A DNA stretch of 40,933 bases from a virus, in the UHGV virus genome UHGV-0179541. One strand, 5' to 3'. The notes under the pieces are model-generated. The model had not been told where the DNA came from and did no database searches. It was given only the letters and a program-made list of their open reading frames with translations. Numbering within the stretch: the first letter of the stretch is position 1; each line of letters opens with the position of its first letter. The translations under genes were made by a program, and so were the position numbers. Positions 2,188-40,438 of this stretch are shown here, piece by piece.

Positions 2188-4077
2188 ATGAAATCCGAAA
2201 CGCTAACCATCCAGCAAATTTTCCAAAATCAACGACAATATCGTGTTCCATTCTATCAACGTGCCTACGTATGGACGCAACGAAACCAATGGTCAGCTTT
2301 GTTGGAGGATATCTTCGAAAAAGCACAGAGCCGACTTTCGGGAACAAAACCAACCCCTCATTTCCTCGGCGCGGTGGTGCTGGAACCTCAACTCAAAAAC
2401 AGCTTGTTAGGTGTAGATACCATACATATTATTGACGGCCAGCAACGTTTAACCACTCTTCAATATATTCTGGCATCCATTCGATTATCATTGCGTGCTA
2501 CAGGCCTTTCTGAACTGGAAGGGTTAGTATTGACTTGCTTGAAAAATACAAACGAAGCAACGATGAGAAATAAAAAGGTAGAATGCTTCAAACTGTGGCC
2601 AACTTTTCGAGATCAAACTCATTTTATTCAAAGTCTTAATGTTGATAATATTGACGATCTCCGTAATGTATTTTCTGATAGCTTCACGCAACATGGTACG
2701 TTACGTAAACATTTCAACCACCCGCCGTCACTAGAGGCATTATGGTTTTTTACTGAAGCCTTTATAAAATGGATTAAAATAGAAAAACACTCACCACAAG
2801 AAAATGCTGTAGCACTAATTGAGGCTGTCTTGACGGATCTGAAACTGGTAAGCATATTTCTCGAAGCTGAAGATGATGCCCAAATAATTTTTGAAACATT
2901 AAATGGGCGAGGAGCGGAACTTCATGCAACGGATCTTATTCGCAACTATATCTTTATGTGCGCTGAGCATGAAAATATTAATGCTATTGAATTATATGAA
3001 AATGAGTGGAAGATCTTTGAAGATAAATACTGGTCGGAAAAGCAACGCCGTGGACGTATTAATAAACCACGCATGGAGTGGCTTGTACATGCGACATTGC
3101 AATCAGAAAGGCAGCGTGAAATTGATCTGTCTCGCCTTTACAATGAGTATCGTGATTATGTAAGTAAGGACTTGCCTTCACAACGAGCAGATCTGCAAGT
3201 AAAGCGCCTCAAACAATATGCATCACAATATAAAGAATTGGTTGGTGGTTTTGGCACAACCCCCATCTCACACTTTAGACATCGCATCGCAGCCTATGAT
3301 GTGACGACACTCTATCCGCTTGCTTTGTTCATTTCGATAGCTAACATCGCCGATGATGAGAAAGCAGCCATGTATAATGATCTTGTCTCCTACGTAGTAC
3401 GAAGATCCGTATGTGGCCTGACGCCAAAGAATTACAACAATGTATTTATGAATGTATTGCGACACTTGTCTAAAACGGAAATTTCCAGTGTTGAGTTACG
3501 TAATATCCTCAATAGCTTAAATGGCGAAGCCTCACGTTGGCCTGGGGACTCAGAATTTCTCAACGCTTGCATCAATGCTCCACTTTATCCTGGCAGGCTC
3601 GACGCACCGAAAATGCGCTCAATGTTAACGGAACTTGAAAGAGAACTTTGTCGCCAAGTGAAGACAGAAAAGCCTGATGTTCCAAATCTTTCTAATCTCG
3701 ATATCGATCATCTTATGCCTCAAAGTTGGTATTCCTGTTGGCCTCTCGAAAATGGTCATATGGTGACAAATTCAGATGCTACGGTAATGAACCAAATTGT
3801 TCTGTCTGGAACCGATCTTACCCCTGAACAGCTACTGGTAAGGAAACGGCAACAAGCGATAGCTACGTTGGGAAATCTAACTTTGCTTAACCTTAGCGTA
3901 AACCGTTCCGTTCAGAATGCTGTATTTCTGAAAAAACGTGATGCTCTCATCGTCCATACCAATCTACGACTGAACATACCACTTATACTTAAGGATAAAT
4001 GGGATGAGAGTGAAATACTGGAGCGAGGTAAAAAGTTGGGGGAAATTGCATTGAAAGTATGGCCAAAATACGATTAA
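2188..4077 (+). CDS. DUF262/DUF1524 two-domain protein, GmrSD-family type IV (modification-dependent) restriction endonuclease-like
   Basis: N-terminal motifs VPFYQRAYVW and IIDGQQRLTTL (DUF262 / ParB-like signature DGQQR); C-terminal DIDHLMPQS region consistent with the DUF1524 His-Me finger; AT-richer than phage core. Confidence 0.75.
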   Translation: MKSETLTIQQIFQNQRQYRVPFYQRAYVWTQRNQWSALLEDIFEKAQSRLSGTKPTPHFLGAVVLEPQLKNSLLGVDTIHIIDGQQRLTTLQYILASIRLSLRATGLSELEGLVLTCLKNTNEATMRNKKVECFKLWPTFRDQTHFIQSLNVDNIDDLRNVFSDSFTQHGTLRKHFNHPPSLEALWFFTEAFIKWIKIEKHSPQENAVALIEAVLTDLKLVSIFLEAEDDAQIIFETLNGRGAELHATDLIRNYIFMCAEHENINAIELYENEWKIFEDKYWSEKQRRGRINKPRMEWLVHATLQSERQREIDLSRLYNEYRDYVSKDLPSQRADLQVKRLKQYASQYKELVGGFGTTPISHFRHRIAAYDVTTLYPLALFISIANIADDEKAAMYNDLVSYVVRRSVCGLTPKNYNNVFMNVLRHLSKTEISSVELRNILNSLNGEASRWPGDSEFLNACINAPLYPGRLDAPKMRSMLTELERELCRQVKTEKPDVPNLSNLDIDHLMPQSWYSCWPLENGHMVTNSDATVMNQIVLSGTDLTPEQLLVRKRQQAIATLGNLTLLNLSVNRSVQNAVFLKKRDALIVHTNLRLNIPLILKDKWDESEILERGKKLGEIALKVWPKYD

Positions 4078-4099
4078 TGCAATTAATAAAATGATTATA

Positions 4100-4123
4100 G
4101 CGGCCTTACATTAGTAAGGCCGC
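4100..4123. terminator. Hairpin GCGGCCTTA-CATTAG-TAAGGCCGC between convergent genes
   Basis: Perfect 9-bp stem immediately after the DUF262 gene stop; the truncated invertase frame terminates inside the loop. Confidence 0.6.
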
Positions 4124-4338
4124 AACTCACTATTAAATCCTTTAATTTGCATCAAGAACAGCACTGTCAGCCCTAGGCTCTCGGACTTTGTACCGCTTAT
4201 CTTGTCTTCAAAAATCAGCTCGCATCCTGCACAGTTAAACGCATTACGTTGTAGATCGATTTTCTGGTCATTTGTTGATACGCAAACATAGCCAATAAGC
4301 ATGGTAGCTCCCTCTGACAAAAGCAGGAATGATGCCAT
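4111..4338 (-). pseudogene. Truncated serine DNA invertase (Pin/Gin/Hin family), N-terminal 75 codons only
   Basis: MLIGYVCVSTNDQKIDLQRNAFNCAGCELIFEDKISGT matches the invertase N-terminus including the catalytic-serine region; frame ends after about 75 aa where a full invertase is about 190 aa. Confidence 0.75.
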
Positions 4339-4718
4339 TTTCTCGTTATTTCTGCATTTTCATAAACGTTGGTTTGGGAGAATTATCTCTGGCTGGCACT
4401 GCATCGGGTGTCATTGGTCTGAATGGGTATGTAACGATTCCGTTAATTATTTCAGGTTCCCGGAGAACACTGATTATTCAGTGGGGGCAGGCGAGATTTG
4501 GTGGGTCTGGTGGTGAAGATGCCGGATATCTTAATGATTTTCCTTTTGCCTTTCCGTCAGCATGTTATGGAATGATAGTTAGTCATGTGGGGCATACACC
4601 TTCAGGCGCAGGAATCCTGTCGGCTTCTGCAATTACATCAAATCAGTTCCGCGGTTTTTCAAGCATAGCGACTGCTGCAAATGCTGTATTAGGTCGTTAT
4701 ATCGCTATAGGGGGTTAA
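4329..4718 (+). CDS. Silent alternative tail-fibre C-terminal cassette (inverted orientation); ORF start not meaningful
   Basis: Shares the LIIQWG junction and 17-bp inverted repeat with the expressed tail-fibre gene; followed by its own Tfa gene. Confidence 0.5.
   Translation: MMPFSRYFCIFINVGLGELSLAGTASGVIGLNGYVTIPLIISGSRRTLIIQWGQARFGGSGGEDAGYLNDFPFAFPSACYGMIVSHVGHTPSGAGILSASAITSNQFRGFSSIATAANAVLGRYIAIGG
4470..4486. repeat. Left inverted repeat CTGATTATTCAGTGGGG of the tail-fibre inversion segment
   Basis: Exact reverse complement of 5768..5784. Confidence 0.8.
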
Positions 4719-4719
4719 T

Positions 4720-5157
4720 ATGTTTTATAGTCCATCATTAAACATTTTTGTGAATCCTGCGCTTAAGGATGATTACATTAATGCAAATTCATGGCCAGAT
4801 GATGCTCTGGCTGTCAGTGATGATGTTTATAATGAATTTGCAATCAATACGCCCCCATATGACAAAATTCGTGTTGCAGGAAAAAATGGATTACCCACAT
4901 GGGCACTAATACCTCCACCATCGCATGAAGAACTTATTCAACAGGCAGAATCAGAAAGGCAATTATTGCTTAATCAGGCCAACGAATACATGAACAGTAA
5001 ACAATGGCCCGGTAAAGCCGCTATTGGTCGTCTGAAAGACGAGGAACTGGCACTATATAATTTGTGGCTGGATTACCTGGACGCACTGGAACTGGTGGAT
5101 ACCTCCAGTGCTCCAGATATTGAATGGCCTACACCTCCGGTAACTCAGGCCAGCTAA
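4720..5157 (+). CDS. Tail fibre assembly protein (alternative cassette)
   Basis: 145 aa, Tfa-like C-terminus (DIEWPTPP), convergent with a second Tfa gene. Confidence 0.7.
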   Translation: MFYSPSLNIFVNPALKDDYINANSWPDDALAVSDDVYNEFAINTPPYDKIRVAGKNGLPTWALIPPPSHEELIQQAESERQLLLNQANEYMNSKQWPGKAAIGRLKDEELALYNLWLDYLDALELVDTSSAPDIEWPTPPVTQAS

Positions 5158-5554
5158 TCTCAGGAGCCGTCGAAGTGTCGACGGCTTTTACTTCTTTTTT
5201 GTAGTCCATCCAGGCGGATAGTTTTTCTTTATCTGTACTGCTGATATCACCAAGCATTAATTCCACTCGCCAGTCAGCTGTGACATTATCGGCATGAGCA
5301 AGTAACTGCATTCGCTGATTTTCAGCACGTGCGACATAATCAATCGCCGGAGATTTCAGTACCGGTAAACCATTTTCATCTGACGTGATTAATTTACCCC
5401 CTTCCTGCTGTCCGGCAATTAATTCATTGTATAAGTCTGTACTTATCTCAACAATGTCAGCAGGCATGTCGCTGTTTATACCATCAAAGAAAAAACCATT
5501 AGTCGATTTTGAGAAATAAATCATAGATATACCTATACACCGATTGCTACCCAA
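5129..5554 (-). CDS. Tail fibre assembly protein (expressed cassette)
   Basis: 141 aa, Tfa-like (EISWPELP), immediately downstream of the tail-fibre gene. Confidence 0.7.
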
Positions 5555-6189
5555 AAACAGGACCTTTCATATTTGACAATTTCTCCCTGAGATATACCGC
5601 CAACAATTATATAGAACTGTGATTTGGTGATATCAGAACAGTTCGCAATGCCCATTGCAGATATACCAGCCAACGACGTTGTATGTGGCACAGCCAACAG
5701 CGCAAGTGAACGATTTGGGAATGTTACCGGGTAAGTCACCGTATAGTTTGATGCTCCACTGACAATACCCCACTGAATAATCAGACCTGAAGGGAGTTTT
5801 TGAAAACCCGTTGATGAAAGTGAACTGGCAAACGCCGCCATATCCGGAATTTGGTTTTGCCCGTTACCTACATTCCGTTTTGCCGCTTCTCCCAAACCAA
5901 GGTTTTGAAGAGCCGTTTTCACCGTGCCGTCCGATTTGATATCGCCAAACGGATTTTTGCGACTTAACAGCAGCGCACGAAGCGCGGTAAGCAGCTGGTC
6001 ATGCCGCCCCTTCTCCAGGCTGGCACCGGATGCCTCCACCACGCTGCAGAGCTCTTCCTGCAACATGTCAAAGTAGTCATCATCCAGATCGGTGGCAGGC
6101 GTGCCGGTCTGGGGGTTACCACGGGTAAAACCGTTCTTACCCGCGCCGAACTTATCCTTCTGCGCGGTTTTCGTGTCTATACGATGCAT
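5533..6189 (-). CDS. Tail fibre protein (short, e14 Stf-like)
   Basis: 218 aa following the baseplate genes; C-terminal half begins at the inverted repeat. Confidence 0.65.
5768..5784. repeat. Right inverted repeat of the tail-fibre inversion segment (inside the tail-fibre gene)
   Basis: CCCCACTGAATAATCAG, reverse complement of 4470..4486; encodes LIIQWG in the tail-fibre frame. Confidence 0.8.
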
Positions 6190-6192
6190 GGA

Positions 6193-6777
6193 TTACTCCG
6201 GATATTTAAAAATTACGTAGGTATGCGACGGGCAGAGTTTGTTAAGCACACATTCGACAACTGTGTCGCCCCAGATACGCAGTGCGGAATCACAGGGATC
6301 GCCACATGTCATCCAGGTGGTGTTGGTGGCGGCTGGCATGTTGACCTGCCAGTAATACCGCCATTCAGGCGCGTTCACAGCGTCAGTACAGGCCGATGAG
6401 CAGGTGAACGTGCTTTTGTCGTATCGCGTGATGGTGGCATCTGGTCTGCCCAGGGCAGCAAGCTGTGCAAGATAAAAATCCTCGTTGATGCCGCCCGCCA
6501 GGTTAACCTTCGCATCCAGCCGTTGCTGACGCTGGCGAAGGGTCTGTGTCCCTGCGGGAATACATTCATCCGGCAGACCGCACAGACGCTCCCAGCGGTT
6601 TATCAGTTCAGTGGTGGTGCGCGGATCCAGCTCCCGCATCAGGGCATCCGCACGCTGATGAACGCGGGATAATGACGGTGCCGCACCGGCAATCGCCGGA
6701 TCGCTGGCTGACCACGCCGGACCGGGGGGCAACAGTGCCGACAACAGACGGATGTAATCATCGTTTGTCACGTCCAT
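6193..6777 (-). CDS. Baseplate protein, Mu gp48 / YmfQ-like (DUF2313)
   Basis: 194 aa; position and sequence consistent with the e14 YmfQ family. Confidence 0.6.
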
Positions 6778-37390: not shown

Positions 37391-38350
37391 ATGGAAAGCT
37401 ATACTTTTGAATTGAAAGGAAATGTATTTGGCTTTTTTCAACGCAATGGTGAGGATTGTTTTTTATACATTAACACTGGTTTATTCCCTAAAGTAACCTA
37501 CTACCAATGGAGTCATTGGCAACGAGGAAAGGATAACTATAATGAAACATATCCTGATGCAATAAAAACAGATGAAATAGCAAAGGCGATTGGTTATTTT
37601 TCTTGGAATCAATGCTTTGATCGTTGTCCATACCAACCTATAGTTATCAGTTTATCTAAAAAAACAGAAGCAGGAATATTCTACCCTAGAATGAATAGAG
37701 GAGAACCAAAACTATATAACCAACAAATAGCGGAGGCACGAATCCTTGATGAAGTAAGGTCTTTTAATAATATATGTGATTCATTAAATGAATTATTTAA
37801 CTATATAGATCCTGATACTGGTAATTTGAGTTGTTTTGGTAATAAAATCAGAGAAATATTAATTATTGCATGTACTGAGGTTGAATACTTACTTCACAAT
37901 TTTCTTACAGATAATGGTTACACTGTTAACAACAATAGATTTAGTACTAACGATTATGTTAAATCTCTTGGTTTGCTGAAATTAGATGGGTATTCTACGA
38001 GGCTCGTTTACTATCCATATTTGCAAGAGTGGTGCCCATTTAGTGGTTGGGATGAATCTAAACCAACTACTAGTTTGACTTGGTATGACGCATATAATGC
38101 AGTTAAGCATAATCGCGGAACAAACAAGCAAAAGGCATCTCTTAACGCTGTAATAAATGCAGTAGCTGCCATTCATATTTTACTCGTAGCTCAATATGGG
38201 AGTGAGATATTTAATAGCCCGATGCACTCTAATTTCTCAAGCATTTTTAATACAACGAAATATCCTTCTTTCTTAGCAAATGATCTTCAGTGCCCAACAA
38301 TGAATCATGATCAAATCCTATGGGATAAAAAGTCATATTTATTTTCATAA
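37391..38350 (+). CDS. Hypothetical cargo protein, 319 aa, Trp/Tyr/Cys-rich, AT-rich (candidate single-gene defence or Abi protein)
   Basis: Strong ribosome-binding site (AAAGGAAACAAT ATG); AT-rich by eye; between int and the att site; no family recognised. Confidence 0.55.
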   Translation: MESYTFELKGNVFGFFQRNGEDCFLYINTGLFPKVTYYQWSHWQRGKDNYNETYPDAIKTDEIAKAIGYFSWNQCFDRCPYQPIVISLSKKTEAGIFYPRMNRGEPKLYNQQIAEARILDEVRSFNNICDSLNELFNYIDPDTGNLSCFGNKIREILIIACTEVEYLLHNFLTDNGYTVNNNRFSTNDYVKSLGLLKLDGYSTRLVYYPYLQEWCPFSGWDESKPTTSLTWYDAYNAVKHNRGTNKQKASLNAVINAVAAIHILLVAQYGSEIFNSPMHSNFSSIFNTTKYPSFLANDLQCPTMNHDQILWDKKSYLFS

Positions 38351-38513: not shown

Positions 38514-39533
38514 TCAATTATTTTTTTTATCAATTATATGACCACTGTTAGTGCCATAATACTTACCAGAAGCAACACCTTGCTTATAAAAATCATTCAA
38601 TACTTTTATTAGCAATCGTGCATCTGATGCATCTTTTATTACTAGCCTACCATTTTTTTCCTCTAACTTAGCACCTTCGAATATATTTAACGTTTCTTGA
38701 TATTTTATTATTATGTCAGGACTTAAATTTTCGTGGTTCTTTTTTTGAGCTATGCTCGCAATAGTTCGCTGAAGTGTTTTATTAGTTAAAATAACCTCTT
38801 CCAGAATTTTTATATTATCTATAATAGAAGCATCAGAAATAACCTTTAACACACTTCTTGCATTTTCCACAAATTCTTTTTCGATCCCGATAATTTGTTC
38901 AAACCCCAATTTCGATACAATATAAATCTTGTTATTTTTAAAGATAAAATCTATTTTTTTGTCAAAACTCACTGTCTGCATCGGAACGACTTTCATTGTA
39001 GCACTATTAACATCAAAGATAGCCTGCATTTTTTGAAAGGTATTCAATGGAGTATCTGTTGCCACCTTAGATTTTGTTAGCTTCCTATAAATGGTAAAAC
39101 CATCATCTTGTGTAGATATTTTTAAACAAAAAGCCAATATATCAGACTTAACTTCCTCTAGACTCTTTAATATATTTATTCCTGAGCCTTTATTTATTTT
39201 TTCTAATACTTTCCTGAATTCAAGGTCTTCAATATTTGCATAACCATAAATAGCGTCAGTCCCATCATCAGAAATCACTGAGTAGTCATGATACTCTAAT
39301 TCGTTGTTGCCTACCATTTTGTTTAATGTATCCAATGACCCAGTTTTAAAAAAATCCACCATTTTTTTGTCAAGACTCACCTTATAGATATCAAATATAA
39401 ATCTGTTTTCTGATGAGACTGAAGAATCTTTATTAATTTTCTTTGTTATCAAATAACATTTCATCGAAAATGTATTCGAGTGATAAAGATTCATTAGTGA
39501 ATTTAAAATACCTTTAATGTCTATTTCCGTCAT
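38514..39533 (-). CDS. Soluble 339-aa cargo protein, second gene of the two-gene operon (Kiwa KwaB-like by layout only)
   Basis: Start ATG overlaps the upstream stop (TAATG); Lys/Asn/Ile-rich, no TM segment; very AT-rich. Confidence 0.55.
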   Translation of the reverse strand: MTEIDIKGILNSLMNLYHSNTFSMKCYLITKKINKDSSVSSENRFIFDIYKVSLDKKMVDFFKTGSLDTLNKMVGNNELEYHDYSVISDDGTDAIYGYANIEDLEFRKVLEKINKGSGINILKSLEEVKSDILAFCLKISTQDDGFTIYRKLTKSKVATDTPLNTFQKMQAIFDVNSATMKVVPMQTVSFDKKIDFIFKNNKIYIVSKLGFEQIIGIEKEFVENARSVLKVISDASIIDNIKILEEVILTNKTLQRTIASIAQKKNHENLSPDIIIKYQETLNIFEGAKLEEKNGRLVIKDASDARLLIKVLNDFYKQGVASGKYYGTNSGHIIDKKNN

Positions 39534-40153
39534 TATTCTAATTCCTGATATTTAGCATAGAAGAGTTTGTAACCAATCTTTTGAATTTTGATACTGTCAT
39601 CTTCGTCCAAATATTTATTCGAACAAATTATCATTCCTTTCTTTTTTTGGCCGCCACTATTTATATACTCAATGCTGTAAAGTGAGTACTTTATAGCTAA
39701 AGTTGGATTTATAAGAATCATTGATGAGTTAGAATAAATAAGAAATGTAACCAGTAGCAGAATAGCTAAAGAAAATACACTCATGGGGTCAGAAAGATCT
39801 TGAAAAAGAAATGGCAGAAGATATGTAAAAAGATAACTTATAGATTCACTGTTTTTATTTTCTATGTCGACTATTTTTACAAAATCCCCATCATTATCAA
39901 TGCGTCTTTCCATATTTGATAATAAGAATATTAAACCAACAATACCAAAAACGACAAGAAGAAATATAATCGTAACCGCACCAAAATTTTCAATGTATAA
40001 TATTAATGCCTTCTTGTTCACCCCCCCCCAGTTGAGGTAATCTTTTTTCTTGTATAGTTGATTTACGGTCATAATTAAAAACAAAGGCATGTAAGACACC
40101 AAAAATAGTGTCAACCTTGCTCCTATTTTTAACTCTTCTTTTCGTGATGACAT
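39533..40153 (-). CDS. Four-helix membrane protein, first gene of the two-gene operon (Kiwa KwaA-like by layout only)
   Basis: Hydrophobic helices at roughly aa 20-37, 63-86, 111-125 and 131-148 of the track ORF; probable ATG start at 40153 after GAGG; contains the G9 tract. Confidence 0.55.
   Translation of the reverse strand: MSSRKEELKIGARLTLFLVSYMPLFLIMTVNQLYKKKDYLNWGGVNKKALILYIENFGAVTIIFLLVVFGIVGLIFLLSNMERRIDNDGDFVKIVDIENKNSESISYLFTYLLPFLFQDLSDPMSVFSLAILLLVTFLIYSNSSMILINPTLAIKYSLYSIEYINSGGQKKKGMIICSNKYLDEDDSIKIQKIGYKLFYAKYQELE
40021..40029. repeat. Homopolymer tract, 9 C on plus strand (G9 in the membrane-protein coding strand)
   Basis: Read directly; encodes WGGV. Confidence 0.9.
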
Positions 40154-40438
40154 AGTTCCAAAACCTCGAATCAACGCTTTCTTAGGTACTGATAACTGTA
40201 CCTAGTTTAACCTATAATATCTATGCAACATATTGATATATTGGTTAAAATTCCTTCTTTGATATCCCCTTACTTTCCCATTGATCAGTATGAAAAAACG
40301 TGAGCAATGTCCGTTATTGGCACTGAACGGACCTAAATATTAACGAGCATCCACCTGAAATGATCATAAAAAACTGAGGTATGCCTAATTGGAACTAGGT
40401 AATAGGGCTACCCTCTGAACATCCAAACTACTAGGGGG

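Follow-up and report, generated by a model that had tools for sequence, protein, structure and literature searches.

An orphaned invertible P segment in an e14-family prophage, probably flipped in trans by serine invertases of other prophages

The closest described relative of the locus reported here is the invertible P segment of prophage e14 of Escherichia coli K-12. Inversion of this segment was demonstrated experimentally at a repeat with the core TTGGTTTGGGAGAA (PMC12529663), and it is readily seen in clonal K-12 cultures (PMC4272514). PinQ and PinR, which are encoded by other cryptic prophages, also invert the e14 P segment, while Fin of Fels-2 acts on the Salmonella Hin (H) segment and PinE inverts both Salmonella H and Mu G (PMC12529663). 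Here we describe a segment of this type in the virus genome UHGV-0179541, a stretch of 40,933 nucleotides (hereafter called the window), where a tail-fibre switch lies beside a truncated invertase gene, pin. Our reading, to which we assign a probability of about 0.8, is that the locus is an orphaned invertible P segment of an e14-family prophage that can be flipped in trans by related serine invertases of other prophages. The system as such is thoroughly known from e14 and is found here in an orphaned state; no new mechanism is involved.

Over the region studied, the window and the chromosome of E. coli CFSAN061769 are 100% identical (megablast). It carries a complete-looking prophage of ~37 kb of the e14/SfV type that is inserted in icd. 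Membership of the e14 family is apparent from the integration at the icd 3' end, the duplicated icd C-terminal fragment, and the location of intE/xisE and of the pin region at opposite ends. The prophage is the intact form of the family that contains the 15-kb K-12 remnant e14. The fibre switch within it consists of the following elements.

5900-6189, minus strand: Sc, the constant N-terminal fibre part (~97 codons), which does not move and to which either Sv or Sv' is attached; it comes after ymfQ (Mu gp48-like) and baseplate J.
5533-5899, minus strand: Sv, the variable C-terminal part of the expressed 218-residue fibre (open reading frame 5533-6189; Pfam Gp53-like_C at residues 131-217).
4332-4718, plus strand: Sv', the silent alternative cassette (invertible part 4383-4718), a pin-side open reading frame of 128 residues with Pfam Gp53-like_C; RefSeq coding sequence.
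4720-5157, plus strand: tail-fibre assembly chaperone (Tfa) paired with Sv' (Pfam Caudo_TAP, 1.8e-33); RefSeq coding sequence.
5129-5524, minus strand: Tfa paired with the expressed Sv (Pfam Caudo_TAP, 2.2e-24); RefSeq coding sequence.
4357-4382: pin-proximal crossover site (pix), reverse complement TTCTCCCAAACC-AA-CGTTTATGAAAA, with the central dinucleotide at 4369-4370.
5887-5912: pin-distal crossover site (pix), TTCTCCCAAACC-AA-GGTTTTGAAGAG, with the central dinucleotide at 5899-5900, within the fibre codons NLGLGE.

The fibre gene is an intact open reading frame in either orientation, encoding 218 amino acids (Sc+Sv) as found and 212 amino acids (Sc+Sv') after in-silico inversion, and the 212-residue fibre is annotated as such in strain 22-250. 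The locus thus has what defines a host-range switch: a constant part in frame with alternative C-termini, two Gp53-like_C domains and two convergent Caudo_TAP genes. A preliminary description of this DNA had recognised a G-segment / P-segment architecture with two convergent Tfa genes between the repeat arms. Both points are borne out, the former by the constant fibre part, the two cassettes with a chaperone each and the inverted pix sites, the latter by the two Caudo_TAP genes.

A short open reading frame is also present beside the pin stub in either orientation (4332-4718 on the plus strand as found, or 134 residues after inversion). Its ~17 initial codons are located outside the crossover site or span it, and the rest is supplied by the cassette that the fibre gene leaves unused. 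The K-12 counterpart of this pin-side frame is stfE/StfE2, for which a block of phage T2 adsorption has recently been reported (PMC12529663).

The same description had placed the crossover at a conspicuous inverted repeat that encodes LIIQWG in both cassettes:

4470-4486: left arm of the LIIQWG repeat (17 bp), at the start of the gp53-like C-domain of Sv', inside the invertible segment.
5768-5784: right arm of the LIIQWG repeat (17 bp), at LIIQWG of Sv, inside the invertible segment.

This repeat exists and is a perfect one, and it lies far above chance expectation with only ~0.0007 such pairs expected in 5 kb. Its proposed roles as the constant/variable junction and as the crossover site did not hold up, and the conserved crossover sites are found elsewhere, with a pix site located ~100 bp outside each arm. 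The pix sites lie in the codons N-L/V-G-L-G-E, which are the true constant/variable junction of the fibre gene, and an outer inverted repeat (4364-4382 / 5887-5905) forms part of both. They are two inverted, imperfect palindromes of 26 bp whose conserved half-sites flank a central AA/TT dinucleotide, as is characteristic of the Din family. The proximal site is identical at 26/26 positions to the K-12 e14 site beside pinE and the distal site matches the K-12 distal site at 24/26, while both include the published core of the e14 inversion repeat. Allowing up to 3 mismatches, only these two pix matches occur in the window, versus 0.03 expected by chance. The LIIQWG repeat, on the other hand, is unlike Din-family crossover sites, and it codes for a motif that is conserved where the Gp53-like_C domain begins in both cassettes. 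As a control, we also constructed the hybrid junction expected from inversion at this 17-bp repeat, and it was present in none of 5426 complete E. coli genomes. In addition, the block found inverted between sister isolates (see below) reaches ~100 bp past the repeat on each side. The LIIQWG repeat was therefore rejected as the crossover site, and the chance that inversion takes place there is practically negligible.

Comparisons among genomes revealed that the segment inverts in nature. When window positions 4000-6300 were used as a megablast query, many genomes matched only query positions 360-1910, which is the block between the pix sites. The most direct comparison is offered by the sister isolates 22-245 and 22-250, which come from the same source, have chromosomes of 5,073,334 and 5,073,329 bp, and carry the locus at identical coordinates. 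The pin pseudogene and the DUF262 gene (the restriction cargo gene described below) are the same in both, yet the block lies in opposite orientations. Over 7,551 bp their differences are confined to 4383-5886, and in-silico inversion leaves 0 mismatches. Since the differences are confined in this way, the exchange must be placed within 4369-4382 / 5887-5900, in agreement with a crossover at the central dinucleotides. Among all genomes that combine the truncated pin allele with this cassette pair, the window orientation is seen in ~15-16 and the flipped one in 17. As in other Din-family systems, both orientations are thus found, with breakpoints inside the crossover sites. The presence of both orientations among carriers, together with the sister-isolate pair, shows that inversion has taken place repeatedly since the truncation. 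The preliminary description had considered the host-range switch to be probably locked. These counts and the near-clonal sisters lend no support to 'locked' as a general property of the allele. For the window's own host, a static state is possible.

Assemblers can mis-orient segments between long inverted repeats, and the orientation differences might accordingly be assembly artefacts. We regard this as extremely unlikely: the repeats here are only 19-26 bp and are spanned by any read, the flipped form with identical boundaries occurs in 17 independent complete genomes, and the consensus of a mixed culture would give the majority orientation, which itself implies active inversion. A different objection is that the orientations arose without a site-specific invertase, either by RecA- or replication-associated exchange at short repeats or by replacement of the segment from another e14-like prophage. 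Breakpoints in identical repeats alone cannot separate these mechanisms, and some strains (for example ANT) do have a second e14-like locus with an intact pinE. The perfect core shared by the pix sites is, however, only 14 bp long. Because the longer, perfect 17-bp repeat nearby is left unused, the exchange appears to be site-specific and not driven by homology. The sister isolates are moreover otherwise identical across the locus, without a second copy of the segment at the megablast level, and the pix sites are experimentally established targets of Pin (PMC12529663). Taken together, this makes an invertase-independent origin very unlikely.

In the orphaned P segment that we propose, the constant fibre part (6189-5900) continues across a 26-bp pix site into either of two receptor-binding C-terminal cassettes, and the cassettes are swapped when the ~1.53-kb block inverts between the central dinucleotides at 4369/4370 and 5899/5900. 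What the locus lacks is an enzyme of its own. Two further elements are needed to describe this:

4167-4302, minus strand: pin remnant; by blastn against intact pinE, the native ATG is at 4302 and homology stops at 4167, leaving 45 of 184 codons.
4213-4284, minus strand: homologue of the Fis enhancer (invertase nucleotides +19 to +90), by homology to the cin enhancer annotated in P1/P7.

By tblastn the remnant reaches Pin residues 1-49 at most, and RefSeq annotates it as a pseudogene without a C-terminus (4159-4302). It is devoid of most of the catalytic domain and of the entire DNA-binding domain, and in what is left the active-site motif GYVRVST has become GYVCVST (Arg to Cys). The adjacent gene for a serine invertase of ~185 amino acids, with a catalytic and a C-terminal helix-turn-helix domain, is therefore the one hallmark of the Din family that is missing here. 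The truncation had been noted before, but the reported length of about 75 N-terminal codons is too high. The 75-codon open reading frame at 4111-4338 (minus strand) matches the resolvase/invertase N-terminal domain and is made up of ~45 native codons, 12 upstream codons and ~18-26 unrelated read-through codons. Such a truncated cognate invertase cannot be active. No other Pin- or PinQ-like sequence was found in the 40.9-kb window by tblastn and sequence comparison. As its own invertase gene is cut at codon ~45, the locus cannot flip itself, which agrees with the earlier statement that inversion would need a trans-acting invertase. Inversion would then be catalysed by such an enzyme together with Fis.

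The cis-acting elements have all survived the truncation: the two pix sites are present, and the 5' stub that is left of pin still holds the enhancer homologue. The argument for sites and enhancer rests on K-12 e14, the P1/P7 annotation and PMC12529663. In the GenBank records of P1 and P7 the cin enhancer is annotated at +19..+90 and +19..+86, respectively, and its counterpart at 4213-4284 is wholly contained in the 136 bp of pin that are retained. Identity to the P1 enhancer amounts to 54/72 for the window stub, which compares with 57/72 for the functional K-12 pinE and 55/72 for Mu gin. Two 15-mers of the form G-N13-C (4267-4281 and 4218-4232) are, judged from their sequence, candidate Fis-binding sites. 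They are spaced 49 bp apart and match their K-12 pinE counterparts exactly, and their centres are 95.5 and 144.5 bp away from that of the proximal crossover site. By homology, this corresponds to the cis enhancer of the Din family, in which two Fis sites ~48 bp apart lie ~100 bp from one crossover site. Six differences from K-12 occur in the enhancer stretch, five of them in the spacer between the 15-mers and one (nucleotide 19) just upstream of the first 15-mer. The Hin enhancer is 65 bp long and starts ~100 bp from hixL, and replacement of its spacer reduced the inversion rate only 2.5- to 5-fold (PMC3798978).

Related serine invertases of co-resident prophages could flip the orphan segment in trans. 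Candidate helpers were sought with four probes: pinE nucleotides 137-400, the last 226 nucleotides of pinE, K-12 pinQ, and a gene body of the PinL/mEpX1 type. The DUF262 gene was joined to each probe as a ranking booster and the matching places per chromosome were counted. This screen yields numbers of loci, not coordinates or intactness, and a count of 1 represents the booster locus only. In the order of the four probes, the counts were:

22-245 and 22-250: 2, 3, 2 and 1 places per chromosome; pinE-like and pinQ-like loci.
CFSAN061769: 1, 1, 1 and 2 places per chromosome; PinL/mEpX1-type gene body only.
A8, A42 and S87: 1, 1, 1 and 1 places per chromosome; all in the window orientation.

At least one candidate helper was present in 11/11 of the flipped genomes that were scored; in one of these, L65, it is a pinQ-like locus only. 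Among genomes without a helper, 3 had the window orientation and 0 the flipped one, while among those with a helper the numbers were 9 and 11. This table is suggestive in that it leans the way a need for a helper would predict, and it is not significant.

Several observations weigh against flipping in trans. The link between helpers and orientation does not reach significance, and the genomes compared lack phylogenetic independence; previous forms of the table gave p=0.07-0.3 under early definitions and 0.09 (two-sided) before the PinL probe was added. The helper loci are known solely as counts of DNA-similar places. For the window's own host, the DNA probes detected no pinE/gin/cin-like gene body and no pinQ/R-like gene on the CFSAN061769 chromosome, the sole candidate being the PinL/mEpX1-type gene body, whose protein family is 53-61% identical to PinE. 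Only resolvase-type serine recombinases, with 37.5% and 27% identity to PinE, were found on the three CFSAN061769 plasmids. Finally, a K-12 pinE deletion was reported to be locked although pinQ and pinR are present (PMC12529663). This deletion probably removed the enhancer as well, which the natural stub retains.

These same observations lend some weight to the view that, in this one genome, the segment has been frozen since the truncation with no resident enzyme acting on its pix sites. The lack of a detected pinE-like gene body or pinQ/R-like gene in CFSAN061769, its resolvase-only plasmids and the locked K-12 pinE deletion all fit a fossil, as does the fact that the three genomes without a detectable helper (A8, A42 and S87) are all in the window orientation. 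Against it stand the PinL/mEpX1-type gene body elsewhere on the CFSAN061769 chromosome and the intact state of the two pix sites, of the enhancer homologue and of each cassette and its chaperone. The same allele, moreover, flips in the sister isolates, and probes at the DNA level would miss more divergent serine recombinases. We consider a frozen segment in CFSAN061769 a possibility, if an unlikely one. The switch is orphaned and not demonstrably locked.

Invertase-like genes are very common in E. coli. With the booster, which is itself present in about 300 genomes, the probe for the pinE catalytic core matched 4758/5426 complete genomes and the pinQ probe 3110/5426, compared with only about 217 for the PinL/mEpX1 type. 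CFSAN061769 is thus unusual in having only the rare PinL/mEpX1 type. A location of its PinL-type gene at the classical phi80 attachment region near tonB-trp was considered and rejected, as 2,670,001-2,720,000 contains no prophage. In the phi80 record itself (JX871397.1), pinL encodes 173 amino acids, without the last ~10 residues relative to mEpX1, and its neighbours are a tail-collar pseudogene fragment and a small inverted repeat. Decay seems to have run the opposite way there, with the invertase kept and the invertible segment lost.

The truncation itself is located at the junction with the neighbouring cargo gene, where two features were identified:

2188-4077, plus strand: GmrSD-family (DUF262/DUF1524) type IV methyl-directed restriction enzyme gene (Pfam GmrSD_N and GmrSD_C; PADLOC mREase_IV, 1516 bits, full length).
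4101-4124: GC-rich hairpin GCGGCCTTAC-ATTA-GTAAGGCCGC, directly 3' of the restriction-gene stop, at the junction of cargo and pin stub (read from the sequence).

At the corresponding position the K-12 gene order is pinE-mcrA-icdC. We propose that the type IV restriction gene replaced both an mcrA-type cargo and the 3' three-quarters of pin, which would have cut pin at codon ~45. The hairpin has the look of a terminator. The DUF262 gene is a single-copy gene found in 306 genomes, and its arrangement with the pin stub occurs in 296/5426 complete genomes (about 5%). It is conceivable, although doubtful, that the pin stub persists in these 296 genomes for its enhancer, which would keep the segment a client switch of the invertases of other prophages, with the type of tail fibre thus set by co-resident prophages. 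If this were true, a StfE2-like anti-phage surface effect of the pin-side open reading frame might perhaps also be under the control of co-resident prophages.

Other cargo was noted as well. Between pin and the duplicated icd C-terminal fragment lies a slot that is occupied by the GmrSD-type enzyme in the window, by McrA in K-12 and by a LEM-3-like GIY-YIG protein in UPEC-245U, and in e14-family prophages it looks like a variable hotspot for defence cargo. At the opposite prophage end from pin, between intE and icd, a complete Kiwa anti-phage system is encoded at 38514-40174 (minus strand), with KwaA at 39533-40174 and KwaB at 38514-39533 (PADLOC 2.3e-95 and 1.3e-121); it adjoins an unassigned open reading frame of 319 amino acids at 37391-38350. 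A perfect tandem repeat, (CCCACCAA) x 5.2, is present at 1890-1931, within the spacer that separates the restriction gene from the icd C-terminal duplicate. Coordinate offsets suggest that the window differs from CFSAN061769 by one 8-bp unit in this array, and that 22-245 and the window differ by an indel in or near it.

As for the remainder of the prophage, icd lies at the right window end and the icd C-terminal pseudogene at 1189-1353, and between icd and this duplicate RefSeq annotates intE, xisE, ymfI/K/L/T, ymfQ and ymfR. The virion part combines an HK97-type head module with a Mu-like contractile tail and baseplate. This module is 97-98% identical to those of phages SfII, SfI, SfIV and SfV, while phage vB_EcoM-689R6 covers 84% of a 24-kb query at 96.9% identity.

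These results correct the anatomy of the locus, in that the crossover takes place at classical pix sites and not at the conspicuous LIIQWG repeat. They also show that a pseudogenised invertase does not equal a frozen switch, as a common natural allele that is without its enzyme but retains both sites and the enhancer homologue was found flipped in near-clonal isolates. The locus offers a natural illustration of cross-talk between prophages via shared invertases, a phenomenon that was recently linked to anti-phage defence through the action of PinQ on e14 (PMC12529663). This is useful for annotation and for the prediction of phage host range from genomes.

Compared with e14 of K-12, the window prophage has the same icd insertion site with an icd C-terminal duplicate, and the same order of genes and sites: ymfQ, constant fibre part, pix, Sv-tfa, tfa'-Sv', pix, pin and a restriction-type cargo gene. 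The two differ in that e14 is a 15-kb remnant, whereas the window prophage is ~37 kb, complete-looking and equipped with an SfV/SfII-like virion module. The P segment measures 1797 bp in K-12 and 1.53 kb, with other cassettes, in the window; the cargo is mcrA in K-12 and a GmrSD-type enzyme here, where pin is down to 45 codons. With the G segment and Gin of Mu, and the C segment and Cin of P1 and P7, the locus shares a constant fibre part with alternative C-termini that each have a chaperone, 26-bp sites in inverted orientation, and an enhancer in the 5' part of the invertase gene (+19..+90 in the P1 annotation). Those systems belong to other phages, contain other cassettes and have intact invertase genes. 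The closest functional parallels are the inversion of the e14 P segment by PinQ/PinR and that of the Salmonella H segment by Fin, where a segment is likewise flipped by an invertase that is encoded elsewhere in the genome. In these cases the cognate PinE or Hin is present too, whereas here the cognate enzyme is gone, so that action in trans would be the sole route to inversion.

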